Source of the DNA: a virus
Reading direction: 5' to 3' (one strand)
Virus record (IMG/VR): IMGVR_UViG_3300011980_000002
Coordinates: 64,001 to 128,000 of that record
Length of the DNA: 64,000 bases
Below, one piece after another: positions 3,416-63,531 of the stretch (its first letter is position 1; the number at the start of each line of letters is the position of its first letter). The notes beneath the pieces were generated by a model that worked only from the letters and a program-made list of their open reading frames with translations, did not search any database and was not told the DNA's origin. The position numbers and the translations under genes were made by a program.

Positions 3416-5359
3416 ATGTATGAAGTAGATGTAGATAGGGTCCTTAATGGTACATTTCATAAGAGACTTTTAAATGCTTATAATAATTTAAAAGAAAATA
3501 TGAATGATGAAACTATTGAGGATTTCTATACTGTATATAAAGATGGTACATTATCAGACATACTAAATCATGCGGATATTATCTTTAAAGAACCCATAAA
3601 AGGTTTACCTTTTATTGAGGATATATTTACTAATTGGTATGTATTTATTCCCCCATATAAAAGAAAAGAAGTTTGTGATAATATCATATCAGCATTTGAG
3701 AAGATAATCGAAAATACTAGGCTTGGAGAAGAACAAAAGAAAAGATACGATGAAGCTTTATATAATATGGCTAAGACATGTACTGATAGAAAACAAACCA
3801 TAGTATTATCAAGGATAGAAACCGATGATAATTTAAGAGGTCTTATATTAGTACTATATGATACTATATATAATGAGCATGATAAGGAATCACATGATTT
3901 TACCTATGTTAATAAATTTTTTACTGATATTATAAATAATGGTAAAGTTAGAGATGCATTACCATATGCATTTGATATACTACCGGTAATTAATATAGGT
4001 CTATTATCAAGAATTGTAGAATATGCATTATCTGATGAAAATATTTGTTATGATAATATAGCTTGGATAAAATTAATATCTTATGATAATATTAATGAGA
4101 AATTATTAAGATGTGGCAATCATTGGTTAGAAAAAAGACTCAATTATATTAAGAATAATTCTATTAAGTCTATATTAAGTAAGTTATCATCTTTAGATGG
4201 TAATAAAGATTTTATTAATTCATTTGATGATGCTAAGTCTGCAATATCATCTTTATTTGATGATGATGAAACCGTAGACGCTTGTAGGGGTTTATTAAAT
4301 CAGAAGAAGTCTGTATCATTAATAAAAACTAAATCTTTATTAGAATCAATCCATGAGTCTGTATATAGAGAATATCTTGATAAATCTTTACATGATGATT
4401 GTACCAATCCTCTAATACATGAATTAATTGGACATAATGACGTTACAATTGAGCATGCTTTTGATTATCTTGAAGATAAGATAGGAGATTTAGGAGAAGA
4501 GTTATTTATACTAAATGAATCTATCATGGATGATATAGATAGTTCTATTATGTATGAATTTACCAATGATGGAACTCCTACTACGGTTATTAGAAATCAT
4601 TATAAGATATTTAGAGAAGAGAAGAAGATTGATAAGAATCCACCATCTGAAGATGATTTAAGGAAATTAGAAGAAGAGAATGATGACTTTGAAGATGATG
4701 ATGAAGTAGATACTTCTAATGTAAAAAAGACTAAAGAGATTGATAATCCTAGGTCTGATGATACTAATAATAAATTAGTAGAAAGAAATCCTAAAGATAC
4801 TCCAGAAAAACCTAAAGAGTCTTTAACCAGAAAGATACAAAATAAAGCTATTGATACAGATGTTAAAATGCAAAAAGGTATGAGTAATGCTCAACAAGGT
4901 ATGAAGGAATTGAAAAATGCTGCTAAAGCAGTAGCAAGAATTCCTGGAAATATTATTGATGGTATTAAAGGTAAATTAGACGAGTGGAATAAACTTGATG
5001 AAGATAAAAGAAAAGAAAAGATGCTTCAACCTGGTTATAGAAATGATATCCATAAGAGAATAATGAAACTTATTAAATATGGAGCAGCATGGAAATTCTT
5101 AGGACCTTTATTAAGTATAAAAGCTTGGTTTATTTCAAAAGTGTATAAAGCTACTATTGGTAAATCATTAGAGAAAAGAGATATTCGTTTAAGAAATGAA
5201 TTAGTTGCAGAATTAGATGCAGAGATAGAAATTACTAATGAGAAAATACAAGATGCTGGAAGTACCGGAGACCAAAAACAGAAGTATCAATTAATGAGGA
5301 TTAAAAAGAAACTTGAAGCTGAGAGAGTCAGAGTACAGACTAATTCTTCATTAATGTGA
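3416..5359 (+). CDS. Hypothetical protein (647 aa), possible head-morphogenesis protein
   Basis: Long ORF with tagaaaggaaac SD-like box upstream. Acidic central tract and K/E-rich helical C-terminus. No catalytic motif recognised. Ends in TGA. The functional guess rests only on its position upstream of the scaffold-like and capsid candidates. Confidence 0.6.
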   Translation: MYEVDVDRVLNGTFHKRLLNAYNNLKENMNDETIEDFYTVYKDGTLSDILNHADIIFKEPIKGLPFIEDIFTNWYVFIPPYKRKEVCDNIISAFEKIIENTRLGEEQKKRYDEALYNMAKTCTDRKQTIVLSRIETDDNLRGLILVLYDTIYNEHDKESHDFTYVNKFFTDIINNGKVRDALPYAFDILPVINIGLLSRIVEYALSDENICYDNIAWIKLISYDNINEKLLRCGNHWLEKRLNYIKNNSIKSILSKLSSLDGNKDFINSFDDAKSAISSLFDDDETVDACRGLLNQKKSVSLIKTKSLLESIHESVYREYLDKSLHDDCTNPLIHELIGHNDVTIEHAFDYLEDKIGDLGEELFILNESIMDDIDSSIMYEFTNDGTPTTVIRNHYKIFREEKKIDKNPPSEDDLRKLEEENDDFEDDDEVDTSNVKKTKEIDNPRSDDTNNKLVERNPKDTPEKPKESLTRKIQNKAIDTDVKMQKGMSNAQQGMKELKNAAKAVARIPGNIIDGIKGKLDEWNKLDEDKRKEKMLQPGYRNDIHKRIMKLIKYGAAWKFLGPLLSIKAWFISKVYKATIGKSLEKRDIRLRNELVAELDAEIEITNEKIQDAGSTGDQKQKYQLMRIKKKLEAERVRVQTNSSLM

Positions 5360-27064: not shown

Positions 27065-28822
27065 CTATTTTTTCTTACCAGTAGATTTCTTACTTGGTGG
27101 TTTGTATGCAGGTTTCTTATTAGCATTCTTTCCTTTACCTTTACTACTCTTAGATTTTGTACCTGCTGTTTTATTACCCATATCTGTTTTTACATTAGAT
27201 GTGGCTACAACTTGTCTACCAGACTTTTTAGCTTCTCTAAATCTTAATTTAAAGGTATAAGCAGGCATTCCTGTAGTATTAAAGGTTTCTATAAATGGTG
27301 CACCAACCCATGTTGTATTTACCATATAATCACCATTATTAATTACTGGTACATATGCAAATCCATTGCTCTTTTTAGAATTCATATTAAATTCTACTAA
27401 TGATAATGGATTGTAATCTTCTTTAAATGAGTATTGATATCTTATCTCTATACTCGGATTACTAAGAATATTACCAGCAGCCCATGAGTATTGAGCAGAT
27501 GGAATTGTTTGTGGGAATACTCCATAATACTTAGACCAGAAAATTACAGTTTCACCATCTTCCGCAGTTACGATATAATATAGACAAGTTGCATAATCCA
27601 TTATCTTATCTATTATATATTCATGCTTAGGATTTATCATTCCTTGGAATACACCTGATATATAATCTGCCCACATCTTATGTAAATGGAACACATGAAG
27701 ATTTCTATCGTCATAATACTCTATACTAAAATCTCCAGCAGTCTTAGACTCTATATTACTTTTACCATATGCTACTTGATGACCTGTGAAAGTTTTACCA
27801 TATTTACTCACATTAATGAATTCATCAGTAACATTAAATGACCTTGCTCTATTAGATAGATACATCATAAAGTCTGAATCATATCCACCGTCCATTACTA
27901 ATTGTCTTAGTATCTCAGGAGAGTTGTGATATGCATAAACAAAGTTAGGGTCATTTTTTAACCCTTCTACTAAGTCATAATTTTCACCAGCTCTAACTAA
28001 TATATTACAATCAGGTCTTACAAAAAATACATGGGGATAGCATTTAGCAAGTACATCATTACCTTGGTTTGTCTTAAACCTATTATATGAATTAGTGTAT
28101 TTTCTAAAGAGTTCATCTCTACTATAAAGACCAAAATTAAGACTATCTCTAATCTTATCCATATCTTCCAGTATCTTATCTCTCTCATAATCCATATGGT
28201 AGTTATATTCATACCATTGCTTATCTTGATCACTATTAAATCTGATTTTAGGTGGATAACCTGCTTTATTTTGAACTAAAGAAGGATCTCTTTCATTAAG
28301 TTTCTTTAACTCTGCTTGAGTCATTCTTCCTGCAACTTTTCTTAAATACCAATCTTTATTCCTATCTATTTTAGCTCCATCATATAAAGCATCATCAAAG
28401 TAATAAGTATTTTCTTTCTTATTCTTCCATAAAGCTGCGGAACCATCTAGTGGGAATTTATCATAACCTTCTATCTGTTGTTCACCACCAAGCATATTAT
28501 TCAATGCAGACTCAATATCTTCTTGACTTGGACCTTCAGGTGGCTTAGGTGCTTCTTCTGCTTTAGGTTGTTCGGCAGGTTGTTGTTCTTGTGTTCCTTG
28601 GTCTATATGTAAGAATGGATAAGAGTAACGAGGGTCTTGTTGACATACCCAGTTACCATTGTATTTAACCCATACCCATCCACCACCAGGAGCAGTTGTC
28701 TCTAATTCACCTACATCTATAGTAGTACCTTTAGCAAGTTTACCTACTATACGAGTTTGTATAGATGGACCTTGACGAATATTAAGTCTTGTTTGTCTTG
28801 TTGTAACGGTCGCAGTTGCCAT
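27065..28822 (-). CDS. SH3b domain + Pro/Glu/Gln linker + tail-tube-fold (gp19/gp48/gp54-like) domain + Lys-rich tail; putative baseplate tube/initiator protein
   Basis: N-terminus LNIRQGPSIQTRIVGKLAKGTTIDV..GGWVWVKYNGNWV is a bacterial SH3 pattern. The C-terminal domain parallels the tube gene 38319..39128 (HVFFVRPDCN vs GRIFMVRKPL; FSIEYYDDRNLHVFHLHKMWADYISGV vs FTIKTYEFSGSPMREIIHFWINGV; YYGVFPQTIPSAQYSW..IEIRYQYSF vs MFANCFPKSINVDSYNY..LDIEFSCTKYE). ATG 28822 with SD aggaaggag; the ORF track uses TTG 28831. Confidence 0.5.
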   Translation of the reverse strand: MATATVTTRQTRLNIRQGPSIQTRIVGKLAKGTTIDVGELETTAPGGGWVWVKYNGNWVCQQDPRYSYPFLHIDQGTQEQQPAEQPKAEEAPKPPEGPSQEDIESALNNMLGGEQQIEGYDKFPLDGSAALWKNKKENTYYFDDALYDGAKIDRNKDWYLRKVAGRMTQAELKKLNERDPSLVQNKAGYPPKIRFNSDQDKQWYEYNYHMDYERDKILEDMDKIRDSLNFGLYSRDELFRKYTNSYNRFKTNQGNDVLAKCYPHVFFVRPDCNILVRAGENYDLVEGLKNDPNFVYAYHNSPEILRQLVMDGGYDSDFMMYLSNRARSFNVTDEFINVSKYGKTFTGHQVAYGKSNIESKTAGDFSIEYYDDRNLHVFHLHKMWADYISGVFQGMINPKHEYIIDKIMDYATCLYYIVTAEDGETVIFWSKYYGVFPQTIPSAQYSWAAGNILSNPSIEIRYQYSFKEDYNPLSLVEFNMNSKKSNGFAYVPVINNGDYMVNTTWVGAPFIETFNTTGMPAYTFKLRFREAKKSGRQVVATSNVKTDMGNKTAGTKSKSSKGKGKNANKKPAYKPPSKKSTGKKK

Positions 28823-28969
28823 AGTATACAACTCCTTCCTTTCCTTTATAAATTATTATGTGTTGCTTTAAGCTAATGTTTTTTATAGGGTTTTTCAATA
28901 AATGTGATGAATTTATATATTATAAATATGGATACTTAATTTAATAGAAAGGATAATTGGTTACAACAA

Positions 28970-38318: not shown

Positions 38319-39128
38319 ATGGCACATACTATACAATCCAATATTCATAATCATACATTTGATCAGTTGGATAAATATGCATTATTCCTAAGTGGTTTAA
38401 ATGTAACCCATGATGTTCTTCAGTCTTACGACCCACTTAAAACTGGTTGGGGAAGAATCTTCATGGTAAGAAAACCTCTTATGGTATGGAATTTGCTACC
38501 AGGTAAGTTAAAGAAGTTTAAACATATATTAGAGTTTGCAAATACAGGTGTTTCCGGTCTTAGTGATATGACAGTTAACTTTGCTAATATTAGTGGTGGT
38601 TATGCTGGTAGATCATTTGAAGTACCGACAGTTGTAGATGATAGTACAAACTCTTTTACTATAAAGACATATGAGTTTTCAGGTTCACCGATGAGAGAGA
38701 TAATCCATTTCTGGATTAATGGTGTTACTGATGTTCAGACAACATTCTCTCATTATTATAATCAAGCAGGTTTGGAAGTTCAGCAGGCAAATCATACTGC
38801 TGAGTTTATTTATGTTGCTACAGACCAGACTGGTAAGAATATAGAGTATGCTTGTATGTTTGCTAACTGCTTCCCTAAGTCAATAAACGTTGACAGTTAC
38901 AACTATGAAGCATCACAACATGATACAGTTCCACTTGATATAGAATTTTCATGTACTAAGTATGAGTCTCCGCAGATAAATGCTAAGGCTATGGAACTTT
39001 TACAGAAGTATACAATACTTACTAACTCACTTAACTTCCACTCCGGTATTACAAGTTCTGTTATTAATCAGAACGGTACTTCTAAGAAGACATACAATAT
39101 TCAGACTGGTATGTTGGAAGAAAGATAA
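38319..39128 (+). CDS. Tail tube protein (gp19-like)
   Basis: The C-terminal pattern CFPKSINVDSYNYEASQHDTVPLDIEFSCTKYE parallels T4 gp19 LWPTNVGELQLDWDSNNEIQTFEVTLALDYWE. Positioned after the sheath gene. Confidence 0.65.
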   Translation: MAHTIQSNIHNHTFDQLDKYALFLSGLNVTHDVLQSYDPLKTGWGRIFMVRKPLMVWNLLPGKLKKFKHILEFANTGVSGLSDMTVNFANISGGYAGRSFEVPTVVDDSTNSFTIKTYEFSGSPMREIIHFWINGVTDVQTTFSHYYNQAGLEVQQANHTAEFIYVATDQTGKNIEYACMFANCFPKSINVDSYNYEASQHDTVPLDIEFSCTKYESPQINAKAMELLQKYTILTNSLNFHSGITSSVINQNGTSKKTYNIQTGMLEER

Positions 39129-39135
39129 GCTGAAT

Positions 39136-39218
39136 ATATTAAACACTTGAGGCTACGCAAGTTTAAAGACTCTTACGAAGAGATGAGATTATGTATTTAA
39201 ATAACATAATCAGTAGCA
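39136..39218 (+). repeat. Orphan copy of the TnpB 3' end / omega-RNA-like three-hairpin module (no adjacent tnpB)
   Basis: atattaaacActtgaggctacgcaagtttaaagactcttacgaagagatgagattatgtatttaaataacataatcagtagca is near-identical to the sequences following both tnpB genes. It includes remnants of the last four codons and the TGA. Confidence 0.8.
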
Positions 39219-39286
39219 AGAGAGATAAGTTACTCTAAATTAATTAGTGTTAATAAATAATATAATAAAATCCTTAAAATTATTAA

Positions 39287-39327
39287 ATTCATATACCCAG
39301 ATTACAAATGGGTATATGAATTTTTTA
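39287..39327 (+). terminator. Rho-independent terminator
   Basis: 13-bp stem attcatataccca/tgggtatatgaat plus T6. Confidence 0.75.
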
Positions 39328-55969: not shown

Positions 55970-56016
55970 AATAATAAGATATACTAGGAATATTAAACCT
56001 AGTATATCTTATTATT
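55970..56016. terminator. Bidirectional terminator
   Basis: Perfect 19-bp stem aataataagatatactagg/cctagtatatcttattatt. Confidence 0.75.
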
Positions 56017-56027
56017 TATATTACAAC

Positions 56028-57293
56028 CTATACCAATTTTGGATCTGTTAATCTGTCATTTGTTATGGTAAATTTATATACTTTACCATTTGTTAATCCG
56101 AGCATATATATATTACATACATCAGATTTGACCTTGATAAATCTATATAAATCTGGTTCTACTTTACCAAATGAATATTCAATATCGTCAGGTACATCGA
56201 TAAATAATGATACTATATTAGACTTATTCTTAATGCAAATAACATCTATACCAAGGGTTTCTTTGATTATATATTTATTATAATTATTTGGATTTGTGAA
56301 ATCTTCTACACTATCACCTATCGCAACAGTTTTTATTTCCATTTTATCAATCATGATTGGAAGAATTTCTACTATATCACTAATATCAGCCGTGGTAGTT
56401 ATTTCATTATCTTCATATTTATAGATATAGATTATATTAGTTAAATCTACATTATAAGTATTATCAGATTTAATAGGTCTACTATAAACTACAGCATCAT
56501 CTACTGATTTTATATCATATGATTTCTTTAATTCACTTGGATTTACAAATAGTATATCCTTAAGGTTATCAGCCCAAGCTTCTATATAAGTTATCGGAGA
56601 AGCTACTTTATTGGTTATATAGTTAAATAACTTATCTTTATAATCGTTATCATCATTATCCCATATATCGTCTGTTATAGGATCGTAGTTATCTGATATC
56701 TTATCGTTGGACATATTTGATAAAATATCTATATGACTCTTTATTCTAAACTTATACGGAAGTATTAAGTATATAAGAAGATTTCTTAAATACTCAGATA
56801 CTTTATCCTGATACCCTGTATCATTTATATACCCCAGTATTACTGGTAATGACTTACTTAGTACATTAGATATACTTACTACAGAAGACATATTCATATT
56901 CTCTATAGCTTTAACCGCTTCAACTAAATCATCATAGTCAATTACATCATAATTAATATAATCTGTAATTAACATATTGACACCATGTTTACATAATGAC
57001 TTAGGTAAATTCTCATACCTAATTATATTATTCCATATCTCTCTTCTGTGAGAATTATCATTATACTTAGCAACTATTTCCAATATAGTAGTTTTGAGAT
57101 TACTGAGTCTCTTAGTGCTACTATTTTGAATATAGGAAGTTTTAGCAGTTTCAATAATCTTATTAGCCAGACTTTTATTTTCTCCTTGGAATGATAATAA
57201 TCCAGACCCATCTAATACTACCTCATATGCTAAAGCAGCCATCTCCGGTCTCTTTAATAAGATGTCATAAGAGTTATTTTTTGTTGTTTCCAT
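56028..57293 (-). CDS. Hypothetical protein (421 aa)
   Basis: ATG 57293 is preferred over GTG 57302, which lies inside the TnpB 3' module. Confidence 0.6.
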   Translation of the reverse strand: METTKNNSYDILLKRPEMAALAYEVVLDGSGLLSFQGENKSLANKIIETAKTSYIQNSSTKRLSNLKTTILEIVAKYNDNSHRREIWNNIIRYENLPKSLCKHGVNMLITDYINYDVIDYDDLVEAVKAIENMNMSSVVSISNVLSKSLPVILGYINDTGYQDKVSEYLRNLLIYLILPYKFRIKSHIDILSNMSNDKISDNYDPITDDIWDNDDNDYKDKLFNYITNKVASPITYIEAWADNLKDILFVNPSELKKSYDIKSVDDAVVYSRPIKSDNTYNVDLTNIIYIYKYEDNEITTTADISDIVEILPIMIDKMEIKTVAIGDSVEDFTNPNNYNKYIIKETLGIDVICIKNKSNIVSLFIDVPDDIEYSFGKVEPDLYRFIKVKSDVCNIYMLGLTNGKVYKFTITNDRLTDPKLV

Positions 57294-57296
57294 ATT

Positions 57297-57372
57297 TGCC
57301 ACTGATTATTTGCACATAATCTCATCTCTTCGTAAGAGTCTTTAAACTTGCGTAGCCTCAAGCGTTTAATAT
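57297..57372 (-). ncRNA. Omega-RNA-like 3' scaffold module of tnpB copy 1 (conserved part only)
   Basis: The minus strand reads atattaaacgcttgaggctacgcaagtttaaagactcttacgaagagatgagattatgtgcaaataatcagtggca: three hairpins, then divergence from the other copies. Confidence 0.55.
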
Positions 57373-58599
57373 TACACATCTTCTATCTTTAGCACTATAT
57401 ATGTTAATAGCAGCATTAATATCCCTATCTATTTCATATCCACATGATTTACAAATGAATACTCTATCAGGTAAAGATATATGTTGTTTATTACCACAAC
57501 ATGAACATTTTTTAGTACTTGGATATAGCTTATCTAACAATCTAAGTTTAATATCATATTCTTTACATTTATTAATCATACGAGATTTAAAGTAATAAAA
57601 ATTACTATACATGATTAATTTATGTAAACTATGAGTAGTATTATTACTTATCATATCAGATATATCTAAATCTTCTATTGTAATACAATTAGGCTTGGTT
57701 TTCGCCGTTAATTTATTTATTAATTTCTTAATAAAATCTTCTCTTATATTAATTAACTTATTATTATATCTTTTAATTTTACTAAATAATATTCTTATAC
57801 GAGATGAATCATATGCTTTTCCTTTCATTTTATTTTTATAATTTTCATTTGGAGTACTATGATGTTTATCATAGTACTTATTTAGCAACTTACCATAATT
57901 AGTCTCTACTTTATTACTAATTATAACACTTAACTTATTAATCTTATCTTCGTAATACTTATATTTCTTATAATCTTTATAATGATTAGTTTTATAAACA
58001 GTATTACCATCATAAATAATAGCATAATTCTTTATGCCTAAATCTATACCCAGTTTTGTATCACTTAAATATAATGGTTTATTATCATAATTATAAAATA
58101 ATAATACATAATATTTATTATATTCTTTAATAATTCTACCAGATATAATATCTTCTTCTTTAGGTAACGATTTATGATTAGTAATTCTTACTTTCTTTAA
58201 TAATGGTAATTTAATAATATTCTTATTATTAGTATAATGGAACCCGTCAAGACAAAAGTAATATGACTCTTTATTTAATCTTTTACGAGATTTAAATTTC
58301 GGAAATCCTTTCTTTTTCTTAAAGAATGATTTAAATGATCTTTCTATATTCATTATACTTTCTTTAATAGCTTTACTACTATAATTCTTTATCCATTTAT
58401 AATAATCAATATTATTCTTTAAGTAAGTTATTATCTTATCAAAATCATAAAATGATAAGAATTTACCTTCGTTCTTATAATAGTCTATATTAAGTCTTAT
58501 ATAAGAATTCATAATAAACCTACAACAAGATAAAGTATTATTAATAAGATTTAATTGATACTTATTTGGATATATTCTTAATTTAATAGATTTAATCAT
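57358..58599 (-). CDS. tnpB: TnpB (IS200/IS605-family OrfB, RuvC-type RNA-guided nuclease)
   Basis: N-terminus IKLRIYPNKYQ. RuvC motifs LGIDLGIKN, CITIEDLDIS, EIDRDINAAINI. Zinc ribbon CSCCGN..CKSCGY. Confidence 0.85.
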   Translation of the reverse strand: MIKSIKLRIYPNKYQLNLINNTLSCCRFIMNSYIRLNIDYYKNEGKFLSFYDFDKIITYLKNNIDYYKWIKNYSSKAIKESIMNIERSFKSFFKKKKGFPKFKSRKRLNKESYYFCLDGFHYTNNKNIIKLPLLKKVRITNHKSLPKEEDIISGRIIKEYNKYYVLLFYNYDNKPLYLSDTKLGIDLGIKNYAIIYDGNTVYKTNHYKDYKKYKYYEDKINKLSVIISNKVETNYGKLLNKYYDKHHSTPNENYKNKMKGKAYDSSRIRILFSKIKRYNNKLINIREDFIKKLINKLTAKTKPNCITIEDLDISDMISNNTTHSLHKLIMYSNFYYFKSRMINKCKEYDIKLRLLDKLYPSTKKCSCCGNKQHISLPDRVFICKSCGYEIDRDINAAINIYSAKDRRCVILNA

Positions 58600-58614
58600 T
58601 GTACTTTCACATAT

Positions 58615-58668
58615 TTAACCCCCAATATACTTTTCTTCAGATAATTCATAAGTATGTTTAATTTCCAT
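58615..58668 (-). CDS. 17-codon leader mini-ORF upstream of tnpB copy 1
   Basis: aaaggagaaaaagaaatATG, encoding MEIKHTYELSEEKYIGG. Its stop is 12 nt before the tnpB ATG. Preceded by the promoter-like motif. Confidence 0.3.
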   Translation of the reverse strand: MEIKHTYELSEEKYIGG

Positions 58669-58690
58669 ATTTCTTTTTCTCCTTTAAAAA

Positions 58691-58726
58691 TAAAATTTAT
58701 TATTACATGATAATATTATATAGATA
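58691..58726 (-). promoter_or_regulatory. Conserved promoter-like motif (variant)
   Basis: The minus strand reads tatctatataatattatcatgtaataataaatttta. Confidence 0.35.
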
Positions 58727-58770
58727 AATTATAAATTTTATTTAATATAGGAGAATATCATCTATATCAT

Positions 58771-59151
58771 TTACTTCTGTAGATAATATAATATTTTAAG
58801 ATAAAAAGTATCATCCATATCATTTACTACCATAGATGATATATTGTCATTATAAATATCATATAAATAAAATGTACATGTTAAATATGATGGTATTTTA
58901 TCACTTAATTCAGATTTCTTTAATAAAATATAATCATTCTTACTACCATCATCTTCTATAGTGGTAACTAAAGTAATATGGGTATTATCTATATCAAAAT
59001 CTTCTATATTATCTACATTAGTTCTTTCTTCAATAACAGAAATATCAAGATTATTTATCATATATGAATTTACACCATCGTTACCAAGTCTATTAAGTAT
59101 TTCGTTGTAATCTAAACTATGTAGTTTATTCATCAATTCATTATAGCACAT
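58771..59151 (-). CDS. Hypothetical protein (126 aa)
   Basis: ORF in the minus-strand accessory block. No motif. Confidence 0.55.
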   Translation of the reverse strand: MCYNELMNKLHSLDYNEILNRLGNDGVNSYMINNLDISVIEERTNVDNIEDFDIDNTHITLVTTIEDDGSKNDYILLKKSELSDKIPSYLTCTFYLYDIYNDNISSMVVNDMDDTFYLKILYYLQK

Positions 59152-59155
59152 ACTG

Positions 59156-59590
59156 TTAACATTCCTCGCATATTAATTTATTTTCATTATTTAGTTTTGT
59201 TAAATATAAATTCATCGTATCTATATTAATTAAATAAATACTTCTATAATTCTCTAATTGATCTTCATAATTAATTATCATATAATCACCTTTGGGAACT
59301 CCGGCATTATTATTCTTATCTAATGATAATACTACAGTTTCTCCATTATTATCGTTGAGAATAGTAATAGCTTTTATATTCCAAGATTTAATCATTATAA
59401 ATCTGAAATTTGGATCTAAATCAAAGTAATATCTAAACATACTACCTGACCTAGATAATATTTCTAAGACATTATACAATTTCTTTTCTACTAATACTCT
59501 TATCTTATTAACAATTTTTAATACATTACCTTTATTAAGAGAACCAGATATTGCTATCCAATCTCCAAAATCATAAATATTATTCTTCAT
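59156..59590 (-). CDS. Hypothetical protein (144 aa)
   Basis: ORF 4 nt upstream of the next gene. No motif. Confidence 0.55.
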   Translation of the reverse strand: MKNNIYDFGDWIAISGSLNKGNVLKIVNKIRVLVEKKLYNVLEILSRSGSMFRYYFDLDPNFRFIMIKSWNIKAITILNDNNGETVVLSLDKNNNAGVPKGDYMIINYEDQLENYRSIYLINIDTMNLYLTKLNNENKLICEEC

Positions 59591-59649
59591 TATTGATAAT
59601 TTTTTCTATGTTCCTTTCATTATATTAAGTATAAGTAAGGTATGATAAT

Positions 59650-59698
59650 AAAAAAAAAATAAAGCCAATTGAAATTAATCCATCGGCTTTATTTTTTT
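59650..59698. terminator. Bidirectional terminator
   Basis: A10, then stem ataaagcc/ggctttat, then T7. Confidence 0.55.
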
Positions 59699-59704
59699 AT
59701 TTGA

Positions 59705-60106
59705 TTATAAGCATACCTCTACGATATCATCGTAATCCTCAAGGTTAACAGCTACCAGTTGTCCATTTCCATATAACGGACAACTGAAAGGTGTAACCCA
59801 CAGTACTATTCTTATACAGTCTGGATACATAACAAAACTATTGTTTCCAAGAGAACTGGTCATAAAAATATAGTTTGTAAACTCCATCATTTTATTATTA
59901 ATGGTTTCCGGAATATCTTCATGAGCAATTATCTCTTCGTCAAATTTGCTAAATGATTGTACACTACGGATAAGTTTTTCAACATTATCCGCAAGATTTA
60001 CAGTCATCTCGCAAATTTCATTAGTAGTTACCTCATCTGTTGTTGATACAACTTCTAAATCATGTCCTTTTATATCTACATTATACTTATTCATTTCTTT
60101 TGTCAT
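59705..60106 (-). CDS. Small acidic protein (133 aa), moderately elevated G+C
   Basis: Own promoter-like motif. Its 5' leader is shared with gene 45821. Confidence 0.65.
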   Translation of the reverse strand: MTKEMNKYNVDIKGHDLEVVSTTDEVTTNEICEMTVNLADNVEKLIRSVQSFSKFDEEIIAHEDIPETINNKMMEFTNYIFMTSSLGNNSFVMYPDCIRIVLWVTPFSCPLYGNGQLVAVNLEDYDDIVEVCL

Positions 60107-60166
60107 TATATCTACTCCTTTGGGCTCTTGATACTATCTCCACCCCGCTCATCTGTGAGCATAATA

Positions 60167-60220
60167 TATTTTATTTACAAGTAAATAGTATATATATATG
60201 AATAGAGAAAATACGGATAA
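60167..60220 (-). promoter_or_regulatory. Conserved promoter-like motif
   Basis: The minus strand reads ttatccgtattttctctattcatatatatatactatttacttgtaaataaaat. Confidence 0.45.
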
Positions 60221-60223
60221 TTA

Positions 60224-60256
60224 ATAAGGTATATTGGATAATCCAATATACCTTAT
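60224..60256 (-). terminator. Terminator of the nuclease gene
   Basis: Perfect 15-bp stem ataaggtatattgga/tccaatataccttat. Confidence 0.65.
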
Positions 60257-60259
60257 ATT

Positions 60260-61054
60260 TTAATATATACTTATTAATTCATTTTCTTTTCCAACTTCAG
60301 TATTATATTTAAGCCTTTCTAAAAATTGGAAAAATCTCTTATACTCTTTATTTACAATTTTTATATAATGAAACGATTTACTACTAACGACTACTTCATC
60401 TTTAAGCTTTTCTTTTACCTTATCTACATCTACTATCTTATGATGAGTATTTGGATTATCCCCACCATCTTTAATTTCAATCTCTAAATTTAATGATGGT
60501 ATATATACATCCGGAAAATAGAAATGTCTCTTATTATCATATACATAATAATATACATGTGGACTTGGAGCCATTATATCGTTATAGTTATAATTCATAA
60601 CATTGTCTAAGAATTTAAGAAAGTCTAATTCATAACTTCCCGTATAACCAACTTCACCTTCTCTATTACTCCAAGTATATTTACCACTTATCTTCCTATT
60701 TGCTAACATTATTTTTTGTTGCTCTGGGTCATTTAATAATGTTATTTTCCCATACTTACCAATCATTCTTTTTTTAAACATTTCTCTATATTGCTCTTTA
60801 CATTTTGGATTATTACAAAATCTATTATACTTACAAGTTTTTTCATTAAATGATGTAGGTTTTTTATCTACGATACATTTACCTTCTTTTTTACCGGTCT
60901 TTAAATAATAATAAAATTGTTTTGGGCTCATATCATTTGGAATCATATCTTCATGCTCAGATTCTAAATGCGCAATATAAGCATCTACATCTCTATGGTA
61001 AGAATCACAGAATTTACATTTTAATCTGGATTGTATTTTGATCTTGTTTGCCAT
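60260..61054 (-). CDS. TnsA-like PD-(D/E)xK endonuclease with N-terminal C2H2-type zinc finger (homing-endonuclease-like)
   Basis: CKFCDSYHRDVDAYIAHLESEH (CxxC..HxxxxxH). YTGSYELDFLKFLDN..HFYFPDVYIPSLNLEIEIKD matches the S-x-x-E ... (Y/F)-x-P-D-(F/V) ... E-x-K restriction-endonuclease-fold layout. ATG 61054 after gaaagga. Confidence 0.55.
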   Translation of the reverse strand: MANKIKIQSRLKCKFCDSYHRDVDAYIAHLESEHEDMIPNDMSPKQFYYYLKTGKKEGKCIVDKKPTSFNEKTCKYNRFCNNPKCKEQYREMFKKRMIGKYGKITLLNDPEQQKIMLANRKISGKYTWSNREGEVGYTGSYELDFLKFLDNVMNYNYNDIMAPSPHVYYYVYDNKRHFYFPDVYIPSLNLEIEIKDGGDNPNTHHKIVDVDKVKEKLKDEVVVSSKSFHYIKIVNKEYKRFFQFLERLKYNTEVGKENELISIY

Positions 61055-61194
61055 TGTAAAAATTATTTTCCTTTCAAAGATTTTTCTTAATATATTCAAG
61101 TATCTGTCAATTAAACCAATGTTTTTTAAAGGTTTATTAAGAAAATTACAATAAATTAAGTATATAGAAATAACTATGGAAAGGAAATTTATTT

Positions 61195-61329
61195 ATGATA
61201 AGAGTATTAATTAAAGCTTTATTAGCAATTATTCATACAGCTCTAATATGTATGGTATTAGGAATATTTTCACTATCAGGAATCCATTACCTGTATGAAT
61301 TTATTAATAAGCACGGTGATAATAAATTA
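61195..61329 (+). CDS. Small membrane protein (44 aa), not in ORF track
   Basis: ggaaaggaaat box 6 nt upstream. MIRVLIKALLAIIHTALICMVLGIFSLSGIHYL is hydrophobic. Confidence 0.3.
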
Positions 61330-61386
61330 AAAGATTTTTTAGATAATGAAAGTACAAATCTAAAATAAAGAAAGTATTAGATAGTG

Positions 61387-62628
61387 ATGATTAAATCTGT
61401 TAAATTAAGAATATATCCAAATAAATACCAATTAAATTTTATTAATAATACCCTATCTTGTTGTAGGTATATTAAGAATAATTATATTGCTTATAATATT
61501 AAAGAATATAAAGAAAATGGTAAATTTATTACTGGATATGATTATAGTAAAATAGTAAATAAACTAAAGAAAACTGATGATGAGTTCTCATGGATTTGTA
61601 ATTATAGTAGTAAAGCTATACAGCGTGCTATGGTGGATGTAGAGAAATCATTTAAAGAATTCTTTAAAAAGAATAGAGGATTTCCGAAATTTAAATCTCG
61701 TAAAAGATTAAATAAAGAGTCATATTATTTTACAAAGAATAGTATCCATTATACAGATAATAAGAATATTATTAAATTACCTATATTAAAGAAAATAAGA
61801 ATTACAGATAGTAAATCTTTACCTAATATAAATACTATTATTAGTGGTAGAATTATTAGAGAATATGATAAATACTATGTGTTATTTATTTATAATTTAG
61901 ATAATAAACGCCTATCTCTAAATAATACTAAATTAGGTATAGATTTAGGTGTAAAGAATTATGCTATTATTTATAATGGTAATATTAGTTATAAGATTAC
62001 TCATTATAAAGATTATAAAAGATATAAGTATTACGAAAATAAGATTAATAAGTTAATGAATATAATTAGTAATAAAGTAGAGACTAATTATGGTAAGTTG
62101 TTAAATGAATACTATGATAAGCATCATAGTACTCCTAATGAAGTTTATAAAAATAAAATGAAAGGAGAAAGCTACAATACATCTCGTATAAGAAAATTAT
62201 TTAATAAAATTAAAAGATATAATAATAAATTGAATAATATAAGAGAAGATTTTATTAAGAAATTAATAAATTATTTAACGGCGAAAACCAAGCCTAATTG
62301 TATTACAATAGAAGATTTAGATATATCTGATATGATAAGTATTGATAATAATCATAGTTTACATAAATTAATTATGTATAGTAATTTTTATTACTTTAAA
62401 TCTCATTTAGTTGATAAATGTAAAGAATATGGTATTAAACTTAGATTATTAGATAAATATTATCCAAGTACTAAAAAATGTAGTATATGTGGTAATAAAC
62501 AACATATATCTTTATCTGATAGAATATTCATATGTAAATCATGTGGATATGAAATAGATAGAGATATTAACTCAGCAATTAACATATATAGTGCTAAAGA
62601 TAAGAAATGTGTAATACTAAACGCTTGA
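61387..62628 (+). CDS. tnpB: TnpB (IS200/IS605-family OrfB, RuvC-type RNA-guided nuclease), copy 2
   Basis: Paralogue of 57358..58599. LGIDLGVKN, CITIEDLDIS, EIDRDINSAINI. CSICGN..CKSCGY. ATG 61387 (the ORF track starts at GTG 61384). Confidence 0.85.
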   Translation: MIKSVKLRIYPNKYQLNFINNTLSCCRYIKNNYIAYNIKEYKENGKFITGYDYSKIVNKLKKTDDEFSWICNYSSKAIQRAMVDVEKSFKEFFKKNRGFPKFKSRKRLNKESYYFTKNSIHYTDNKNIIKLPILKKIRITDSKSLPNINTIISGRIIREYDKYYVLFIYNLDNKRLSLNNTKLGIDLGVKNYAIIYNGNISYKITHYKDYKRYKYYENKINKLMNIISNKVETNYGKLLNEYYDKHHSTPNEVYKNKMKGESYNTSRIRKLFNKIKRYNNKLNNIREDFIKKLINYLTAKTKPNCITIEDLDISDMISIDNNHSLHKLIMYSNFYYFKSHLVDKCKEYGIKLRLLDKYYPSTKKCSICGNKQHISLSDRIFICKSCGYEIDRDINSAINIYSAKDKKCVILNA

Positions 62629-62695
62629 GGCTACGCAAGTTAAAAGACTCTTACGAAGAGATGAGATTATGTATTTAAATACATAATCAGTAGCA
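62614..62695 (+). ncRNA. Omega-RNA-like 3' scaffold module of tnpB copy 2 (conserved part only)
   Basis: atactaaacgcttgaggctacgcaagttaaaagactcttacgaagagatgagattatgtatttaaatacataatcagtagca. Hairpin 3 is a perfect 12-bp palindrome. Confidence 0.55.
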
Positions 62696-62716
62696 TAATT
62701 TAGAGGACTAGAAATT

Positions 62717-63109
62717 ATGGCTATTACAAAAATGAAAATGTCTCAGCATTATGTAGGTACAACTTCCAGAGGAATGACTATGGTAAGTGAGAAAGGTTGT
62801 AAACCTGGTGGTACTATGCAAGTCTATGTTCCTGAACTTATGCCAGGTATAGAATTTGCTGCACCAGTACTTAGACTTACCATTACCAAAGGAGAAACTA
62901 TATTCGTTAATGCTGATGAATGTAAAATAACAACACCACCTTCAGTTAGGTCAAGAAACTATATAGAACCTAAGATGGAGAATAATGCTTCTTGGAATAA
63001 TATCGTAGAAGACCCTGATAAGACTAATATACCAAGAGGTACTAATGTAACTGTAAACTTTGTAGGAGAGAATATTTATAATCCTACATTCAATACTAAT
63101 CAAACTTAA
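62717..63109 (+). CDS. Hypothetical protein (130 aa), possibly small baseplate/spike OB-fold protein
   Basis: MQVYVPELMPG recalls the v-x-V-x-(I/V)-P-x-(L/I) start of gpV/gp5-type OB folds (weak). Confidence 0.35.
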   Translation: MAITKMKMSQHYVGTTSRGMTMVSEKGCKPGGTMQVYVPELMPGIEFAAPVLRLTITKGETIFVNADECKITTPPSVRSRNYIEPKMENNASWNNIVEDPDKTNIPRGTNVTVNFVGENIYNPTFNTNQT

Positions 63110-63129
63110 GAAAGTGAGGTATTTAAGTT

Positions 63130-63531
63130 ATGCAAATACCTGCTACAATTACTGAGCTAATTAGATGGGGTGAAACTGAAGAAGTATCTTATAGAAATCT
63201 TCATACAGAATTAATCGTTACTAATGAGCAAACTGACCATAATATAAAAATTCCATTAAATGATTATTTAGGAGACTATCGTTTCTTTATGAATAAGATT
63301 ATAATGGAAGTAGAAATGAATGATGATGAGATGGTTGTATATAAATGCAATCCTAAAGCATTATCATTAAAATTGTATGGAACTACAGAATATTGGTATG
63401 AGTTATTGGTACTTAATAACTGTATATCCAAATTAGACTTTGTGGAAAAGAAAGTTAAAGTATTTTTACCTAATAAGATTAAAGGATTTACCAATGAGGT
63501 AATGATATTAGAAAAGCTCCTTTCTAAGTAG
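63130..63531 (+). CDS. Hypothetical protein (133 aa), possible LysM/tail-X-like fold
   Basis: ALSLKLYGTTEYWYELLVLNNC..KVKVFLPN loosely fits the LysM-like pattern (weak). Confidence 0.3.
   Translation: MQIPATITELIRWGETEEVSYRNLHTELIVTNEQTDHNIKIPLNDYLGDYRFFMNKIIMEVEMNDDEMVVYKCNPKALSLKLYGTTEYWYELLVLNNCISKLDFVEKKVKVFLPNKIKGFTNEVMILEKLLSK

Follow-up and report, generated by a model that had tools for sequence, protein, structure and literature searches.

IS607 elements, the RNA-guided nuclease TnpB with its omega-RNA, and copies that carry tnpB alone are already known, and TnpB has been known in large phages since 2010 (PMC2853527). Viruses are also known to carry IS607 elements, and tnpA is often a pseudogene (30% in one survey; PMC10690162, PMC11061315). 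Homing that depends on TnpB was demonstrated for IS605 and the IS607 IStron CboIStron (PMC10690162), and homing of TnpB elements between co-infecting phages is a theoretical extension made in a 2026 review (PMC13565253). Here we describe two tnpB genes and a third, tnpB-less RNA scaffold in 64,000 nucleotides of viral DNA (positions 64,001 to 128,000 of IMG/VR record IMGVR_UViG_3300011980_000002), a stretch called the window below. We read them as non-autonomous IS607 derivatives in a lineage of ~210-233-kb myoviruses, in which RNA-guided cleavage of empty sites would drive homing; we put the probability of this reading at about 0.62.

CboIStron of Clostridium botulinum (Zedaveinyte et al., PMC10690162) resembles these elements in several respects. 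Its tnpB follows a serine-recombinase tnpA with a MerR-type helix-turn-helix (HTH) and the tnpA stop overlaps the tnpB start, an arrangement seen here in relatives of the window copies. Three stem-loops and a nexus pseudoknot lie directly 5' of a flank-encoded guide, the target-adjacent motif (TAM) is similarly G-rich, and tnpA-less copies are found beside full ones. In contrast to CboIStron, the window elements have no group I intron, no tnpA and no recognisable left end, reside in a jumbo myovirus of the virulent type, and have WWRGA, provisionally, where CboIStron has the TAM TGGG; in addition, a 10-nt duplication flanks one of the copies. The TnpB of ISFba1, which comes from a gut Firmicute (PDB 8IAZ; Ren et al. 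2024, PMC11061315), is likewise IS607-type and of similar size, and its TAM, AGGAG, resembles a Shine-Dalgarno (SD) sequence, in line with insertion just 5' of start codons here. However, its guide RNA is a 187-nt RAGATH-18-type scaffold apart from the coding sequence, whereas the scaffold described here is ~70 nt and runs from the stop codon. The ISFba1 TAM-contacting residues N121 and N122 (PMC11061315) appear, as read from alignments, as N-S in the plus-strand copy and D-G in the minus-strand copy. ISCaje1-3 of Campylobacter phages CP220 and CPt10 (Timms et al. 2010, PMC2853527) are also tnpB-only elements of large virulent phages whose positions vary between close relatives, although they were assigned to the IS1341-like subgroup of IS200/IS605 before guide RNAs were known; they have no nucleotide similarity to the window in the GenBank phage collection searched. 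The homing proposed here is akin to that of the Seg and Mob homing genes of T4-like phages and to 'transposon non-restorative homing' (reviewed in PMC13565253) in that an insertion-free genome would be cut and repaired from the carrier, with the difference that a TAM and an RNA guide encoded in the flank, not a protein, would specify the target.

The two tnpB genes lie at 57358..58599 on the minus strand (the minus copy) and at 61387..62628 on the plus strand (the plus copy), and each is an intact open reading frame (ORF) of 413 aa. An earlier sequence-only reading of this DNA had called them paralogous, catalytically competent TnpB genes, and the analysis bears it out. The proteins are 77% identical without gaps, the genes share the 66-nt identical run quoted in that reading, and both ORFs score above cut-off against Pfam HTH_OrfB_IS605, OrfB_IS605 and Cas12f1-like_TNB. 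DNA homology between the copies starts at most ~40 nt 5' of the ATG and breaks off precisely at CAGT(G/A)GCA, 67-70 nt after the TGA. Both ORFs match NCBIfam guided_TnpB at 203-205 bits (cut-off 100), while remaining below the cut-offs of IS607_TnpB (90-101 bits, cut-off 350) and IS200_TnpB (205-208 bits, cut-off 425); by these profiles the protein is of the generic guided_TnpB subfamily. The closest solved structure, matched with the plus copy, is PDB 8IAZ (E 3e-54), and residues D186, E309 and D391 align with the active-site positions of ISFba1 TnpB. These RuvC residues and the zinc-ribbon cysteines C365, C368, C383 and C386 are invariant among 27 homologues, down to 51% identity. Pairwise ratios of nonsynonymous to synonymous substitution rates (dN/dS) range from 0.19 to 0.45, indicative of purifying selection: the plus copy gives 0.19 against two relatives (L001 and L029; L-numbers denote loci from relatives, of which L014-L017 are the empty-site loci compared with the window), the minus copy 0.34-0.45 against relatives, and the two window copies 0.45 against each other. 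Because the catalytic and zinc-binding residues are invariant and dN/dS is 0.19-0.45, both genes look functional and nuclease-competent. The possibility that they are TldRs (nuclease-dead TnpB-derived transcription factors) was rejected, as the RuvC residues and the zinc ribbon are present; in this respect the sequence-only prediction of nuclease competence holds. The TnpB homologue clade is almost confined to ~210-233-kb phage contigs, with multiple copies per genome.

Each tnpB is followed by a predicted omega-RNA scaffold. The three hairpins that the sequence-only reading had described after each gene, ending in CAGT(A/G)GCA, are exact. RNAalifold added a pairing that it had missed, a pseudoknot between the hairpin-1 loop GCUAC and the 3'-terminal GUAGC. 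In the minus copy the scaffold occupies 57297..57366 (minus strand), has the tnpB TGA within stem-loop 1 (SL1), continues through SL2, SL3 and the pseudoknot, ends ..CAGTGGCA at 57297 and matches a covariance model at 81.2 bits. The plus-copy scaffold, likewise of SL1-SL3 plus pseudoknot, spans 62620..62695 (plus strand), ends ..CAGTAGCA at 62695 and scores 96.3 bits. A 49-nt module core occurs three times in the window versus none in 100 shuffles, and these three are also the hits of the covariance model, at 81-96 bits, with everything else in the window at 18 bits or less. We compared 21 distinct 3' regions, which comprise a close group, a second subclade (52-62% protein identity, almost only on ~210-233-kb phage contigs) and three outliers. 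All 21 modules have one layout and the terminus ..AG(T/C)A(G/A)CA, after which they diverge. The 22 base pairs of the four helices are 97.7% standard, versus 33-49% in controls with the partners shifted by 1-3 columns; 13 of the 22 are changed on both sides, versus 1-6 in these controls, and none of 500 shuffles reaches the observed values. Compensatory changes convert CTTG/CAAG of hairpin 1 to CCTG/CAGG or CCTA/TAGG and give GGTTAC...GTAAC and GGTTGC...GCAAC in the pseudoknot, and hairpin 3 is of wholly different sequence among copies. The 231-nt 3' region of the plus copy has a fold z-score of -5.6. In general, TnpB omega-RNAs consist of three consecutive stem-loops, the first of which (the nexus) pairs with the 3' end of the scaffold just before the guide (PMC10690162), and judged by its predicted fold the window module is of this published universal architecture. 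The minus-copy right end differs at 57300 (minus strand), giving CAGTGGCA in place of CAGTAGCA; the pseudoknot is kept there as a G-U pair, and the changed base lies 6-7 nt 5' of the downstream ATG.

Two other RNA assignments were rejected. No Rfam family matches at gathering score anywhere in the window, and the RAGATH-18 covariance model gave nothing at E<=10 in 62300..62760, only noise around the plus module, so the missing Rfam match rules out a RAGATH-18-type right-end RNA. The same absence of Rfam families, together with the mere 40-62 nt from element boundary to tnpB ATG, excludes an IStron carrying a group I intron. Scans for sigma-70 promoters and terminators did no better in this AT-rich DNA than in shuffles; 3' of SL3 there is no T-run, and the terminator scan called nothing there.

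Comparison with a sister phage gave natural empty sites. A viral contig of 210 kb, IMGVR_UViG_3300008575_000010 (also ODJA01000004.1), runs collinear with the window, to which it is ~85% identical in nucleotides (range ~80-89%), and all three window insertions are absent at its orthologous positions. The plus-copy insertion is 61347..62695, its empty site (L014) reading ..TTTTTAGATAA|ATTAGAGGATTG.., and the minus-copy insertion is ~57297..58661, its empty site (L015) reading AAAGA|AATATGGAAACCACAA. The sister phage has three copies of its own at other sites. One of these, a tnpA remnant plus tnpB of 1,919 nt, has its empty counterpart at ~28835 of the window, just upstream of the virion structural gene 27065..28831. 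A 1.7-kb contig (L029) has the left junction of the plus copy with a different right flank. From this pattern of presence and absence, the elements, tnpA-less copies included, have been gained or lost recently. The suggestion that they are immobilised or domesticated is therefore not favoured, since the sites are polymorphic between closely related phages, whereas the alternative idea in the same reading, homing, fits the polymorphism. In L044 and L141 (IMGVR_UViG_3300019477_000099) the DNA right after the right end encodes ..FHKFKNRLINKCKEYGIK, part of another tnpB; as we read this junction, one element is inserted within another.

The boundary at which scaffold gives way to guide, as called in the sequence-only reading, is placed likewise by more than 20 copies that end ..AGYARCA at different sites and then diverge, and by the sister empty sites; both candidate guides are exactly as quoted there. 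The predicted minus-copy guide, AATATGGAAACAACAA (57281..57296, minus strand), consists of the first bases past the conserved right end and covers the ATG (57293) of gene 56028..57293. Against the sister empty site it has a single mismatch (15/16), at position 12, and AAAGA lies 5' of the match. The predicted plus-copy guide, TAATTTAGAGGACTAG (62696..62711, plus strand), similarly adjoins the right end and covers the SD of gene 62717..63109, and it has four mismatches in 16 to the sister empty site TTAGA|TAAATTAGAGGATTGA. Only the minus-copy guide looks able to cut that sister phage.

The family of these elements, as judged from the genes adjoining tnpB in relatives, is IS607, with a serine-recombinase TnpA, and not Y1/HUH IS605. 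The sequence-only reading had found no Y1/HUH TnpA ORF. That absence stands, in that the window has no tnpA by tblastn, only ~14 terminal codons; however, the wrong transposase family had been sought, and relatives carry the serine type. Two tnpB copies of the sister phage (L002 and L010, the latter at 191236..198438 of IMGVR_UViG_3300008575_000010) are 82-84% identical to those of the window, and each has a tnpA-type ORF directly 5'; the TnpB proteins of relatives with an upstream truncated tnpA ORF are 82-86% identical to window TnpB. The L002/L010 upstream ORF starts MEKIYSVSEFAEMIGKSVNTLQRWDRLG...NVIYTRVSNIGQK, matches Pfam MerR_1 (a MerR HTH) and a resolvase N-terminus, has the motif YTRVS, and matches the first half only of NCBIfam transpos_IS607 (NF033518; 70.9 and 65.5 bits). 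One of these sister-phage tnpA copies is truncated, at 129 aa, and an internal deletion has left 110 aa of the other; in L001 the left end and tnpA start are reduced to ~100 nt. Intact TnpA of 201-227 aa, with its stop overlapping the tnpB start, is found in the more distant L038 (a 222.5-kb phage), L061 and L110. In the loci examined every tnpA or remnant adjoining tnpB is of the serine (IS607) type, which rules out membership of IS200/IS605. The serine TnpA upstream of tnpB by which IS607 elements are recognised is thus present in relatives and lacking in the window, and because tnpA is gone here yet present there, we take the window copies for derivatives rather than complete IS607 members. 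Copies without tnpA are the majority state across many phage genomes. The tnpB of L010 itself is frameshifted ~12 codons short of the usual end (4212..4250; the ORF stops ..AAINNI*) with its omega-RNA module intact, so that here tnpB decays while the RNA persists.

The earlier statement that the copies share no left-end sequence proved wrong: an IS607 tnpA 3'-end remnant 5' of the ATG is common to copies and relatives. Nonetheless, the true IS607 left end is missing from the window copies. The plus copy begins inside the tnpA remnant, the last ~14 codons of which (..KYKSKIKKVLDSDD*) occupy 61347..61386 (plus strand) with the stop overlapping the tnpB ATG, as established by alignment with L002, L010 and L001 and by the L014 empty site. 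The minus-copy left remnant, 58600..58661 (minus strand), delimited by the empty-site comparison, is a decayed leader, possibly tnpA 3' debris. A candidate true left terminus in the minus copy (TTAAACA..TACTTATGAAT, compared with L010 and L002) was rejected, as many shuffles gave local alignments just as good (204/500 and 154/500). Several second-subclade copies, located at unrelated sites, open with one left boundary (GTTATYRWTTAA..), and the left regions of L034, L039 and L036 compared with the L038 left end were marginally positive (4-15 of 500 shuffles as good). These copies are internal-deletion derivatives, for which mobilisation in trans is possible. The plus-copy TnpB protein is recorded on a 223,074-bp contig; among the best 120 intact TnpA homologues none is on that contig, which is weak evidence as the table gives the longest contig per cluster, and several are on 226-232-kb sister phage contigs. 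Phage reading frames enter both elements, as a 57-aa ORF with an altered C-terminus (61195..61368, plus strand) and as a 17-aa stub (58622..58675, minus strand), and both end 15-18 nt 5' of the tnpB ATG. This suggests that tnpB translation may be coupled to host-phage signals, much as it is coupled to tnpA in full elements.

In the empty-site comparisons the guide match is immediately preceded by AAAGA, TTAGA, TTGGA or AAGGA; the last also occurs at L042, where the left boundary was taken from the locus's own 12-nt flank repeat. We provisionally write the TAM as WWRGA, an SD-like motif. The motif stays provisional, since in full-length relatives the left flank can be placed only to within a few bases; as for SD-like TAMs, one is already known from ISFba1 TnpB, which requires AGGAG (PMC11061315). 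A co-oriented ATG (ORFs of at least 60 aa) is found -1 to 21 nt downstream of the right end at 13 of 22 independent sites, compared with 8.5% of random positions in the same loci. In L041 (IMGVR_UViG_3300045988_149815) the element lies 10 nt 5' of the tail-sheath ATG, and in L002 it lies 10 nt 5' of the ATG of a 583-aa structural gene; in both loci the gene, presumably essential, is split from its SD.

The minus copy is also flanked by a perfect 10-nt duplication, AATATGGAAA, that is single-copy in the L015 empty site. The left copy is at 58662..58671 (minus strand), preceded by the TAM-like AAAGA at 58672..58676, and the right copy is at 57287..57296. As a side effect, the original SD and ATG of gene 56028..57293 stay on the left, where they open the 17-aa stub ORF (MEIKHTYELSEEKYIGG*), which stops 15 nt 5' of the tnpB ATG, and the real gene lies past the right end with no clear SD ahead of it. 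A similar repeat, of 12 nt, flanks L042, and L041, L045 and L010 have shorter or imperfect ones. Flank duplication as a hallmark of the clade was rejected: with 12-nt anchored comparison, 3 of 22 sites have 10 or more matches versus 19 of 462 (4%) mismatched controls, a weak signal that does not reach significance.

The third module, at 39142..39218 (plus strand; covariance-model match 90.6 bits), was missed in the sequence-only reading and has no tnpB. It lies directly past the stop of gene 38319..39128, a tail tube protein by Pfam assignment, within 117 nt (39128..39244) that are inserted here compared with L016 and L017. Its guide-position sequence, AGAGAGATAAGTTACT (39219..39234, plus strand), follows the scaffold; the first 11 nt after the scaffold resemble the left flank AGAAAGATAAG (39119..39129), itself preceded by TTGGA, and 26 nt on the right side (AGAGAGATAAGTTACTCTAAATTAAT) have no counterpart in the sister phage. 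On the left, the junction falls at AAAGATAAG, a sequence also found near the tnpB 3' end. As the SL3 variant of this orphan is identical to that of L028 and unlike both resident copies, it most probably derives from a third element whose tnpB has been lost, and it could provide a third guide in trans. The 12 further copies of the module found in IMG/VR each have tnpB directly upstream, and therefore orphan modules are rare. About 70 nt past the module, at 39288..39326 (plus strand), is a strong hairpin, TTCATATACCCA-(9 nt)-TGGGTATATGAA, followed by TTTTTT; it is absent from the consensus terminator scan list. It looks like the terminator of the tail-tube operon, which would place the orphan inside the 3' untranslated region of the tail-tube transcript. 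One candidate target of the orphan guide, AGAGAGATAAGATACT at 28170..28185 (minus strand; 15 of 16 positions, inside virion structural gene 27065..28831), is probably a chance match, because the 5' flank TTATG is not TAM-like and the similarity stops after 16 nt.

We propose the following mechanism. The ancestral full element would have had the order left end, tnpA (serine recombinase with a MerR-type HTH), tnpB, and omega-RNA/right end. After loss of tnpA and of the recognisable left end, the window unit would consist of tnpB plus the ~70-nt scaffold from the tnpB stop, the next ~16 nt of phage DNA serving as guide. The unit would be co-transcribed with the surrounding phage operon, with an upstream ORF that reads into the element feeding tnpB translation. 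TnpB would bind the scaffold processed from its own transcript, and the ribonucleoprotein (RNP) would cut DNA having the uninterrupted site, that is, the SD-like TAM (WWRGA) followed by a match to the guide. The cleaved junction would be the empty site of a co-infecting relative, or of a sibling genome after element loss; the occupied site would be immune because the element parts the TAM from the target. In a mixed infection the empty-site sister would be cut and repaired from the occupied genome, whereby the element would be restored or spread by copying (homing) or the competitor penalised.

Several points weigh against this mechanism. RNA production, cleavage, the TAM and homing are what we infer for these elements, and the first arrival at a new site without tnpA and left end is not accounted for. 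The highest dN/dS values (0.34-0.45) fall in the minus-copy comparisons and suggest some relaxation. The plus and orphan guides differ from the sister empty sites at 4 or more of 16 positions, so their activity against that relative is doubtful. WWRGA is drawn from five sites (the four window/sister empty-site comparisons plus the L042 flank), and some full-length relatives have flanks at odds with it (L010 ..GGCAA, L001 ..GGAAC). Insertion between SD and ATG should harm the downstream gene. Finally, IS607 is reported to make no target duplications (PMC10690162), and the 10-nt duplication around the minus copy is not a product of IS607 transposition or of clean homologous repair. It is speculation on our part that copying was interrupted during repair of a TnpB cut and completed by end joining.

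We consider a further variant possible though unlikely: a phage-restricted, transposase-less lineage of tnpB plus omega-RNA would spread from one co-infecting jumbo phage to another purely as RNA-guided homing endonuclease genes, its TAM overlapping the SD so that units insert between SD and start codon and borrow expression signals, the 10-12-nt duplications of TAM-proximal target at some copies being footprints of TnpA-independent break repair and the orphan a trans guide. That the copies are instead inert, decaying debris, full IS607 elements that arrived by means of TnpA, lost tnpA and left end by deletion and are drifting to extinction with the intact ORFs marking recent arrival, we regard as improbable. 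Relatives do show every stage of tnpA decay (129 aa truncated, 110 aa internally deleted, ~100 nt, none), and the frameshifted 3' end of the L010 tnpB, the orphan right end in the window and the dN/dS of 0.45 between the window copies agree with decay. However, dN/dS is below 1 throughout and 0.19 for the plus copy, the catalytic and zinc-binding residues are invariant down to 51% identity, and compensatory changes keep the RNA helices. Moreover, the tnpA-less majority, several of them sharing one left boundary at different sites, argues for persistence and spread without a resident tnpA.

Given that site positions vary between close relatives, we think it quite unlikely that the RNPs have a fixed host-like function as co-opted weapons that destroy insertion-free related phages without copying, or as regulators that tune the downstream gene near its start codon. 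The guides do overlap the SD or start codon of a downstream gene, several copies per genome are found in a clade nearly restricted to ~210-233-kb phage contigs, and the killing of competitors by homing endonucleases is counted in the literature as a benefit to the carrier phage (PMC13565253). As regulators, though, the proteins would be at odds with their intact nuclease residues, unlike TldR-type regulators, and the target in the occupied genome has no TAM, so self-binding at the downstream gene is unexpected. We give very little credence to the view that the 3' module is a DNA or generic mRNA element (TnpA right-end sites, a terminator or a stabiliser) and no guide scaffold. It would accommodate the ~60 bp of IS607 right end required for TnpA recognition (PMC10690162) and the one module without tnpB, behind a highly expressed structural gene. 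Against it, IS607 ends are recognised as double-stranded DNA (PMC10690162), which gives no reason for compensation in four helices including a pseudoknot, SL3 has neither a T-run after it nor a terminator call, and the other modules in IMG/VR (12/12) are directly downstream of tnpB.

The phage that holds the window is a large myovirus, with PHROG matches to a major head protein, tail sheath, virion structural proteins and topoisomerase II. When 56000..63500 was compared by megablast with 50,697 GenBank phage records, nothing matched, and thus the window has no close annotated phage relative. Between the two tnpB copies, at 60260..61099 (minus strand), is a 279-aa ORF that matches PHROG 15137 'endonuclease' (E 7e-66) and, weakly, a PvuRts1I-like N-terminus; this region aligns in L014, so the sister phage has the ORF too. 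It may be a free-standing homing or restriction-type nuclease.

What makes these elements attractive is the combination of a phage-restricted multi-copy clade, insertion between SD and start codon, natural pairs of occupied and empty sites, and an orphan scaffold. The preference for the interval between SD and start codon raises the question of how essential downstream genes, such as the tail sheath in L041, are translated. Closely related jumbo phages that differ by transposase-less TnpB units are a natural test bed, and together with the 15/16 match of the minus-copy guide they make TnpA-independent ('non-restorative') homing between co-infecting phages directly testable.

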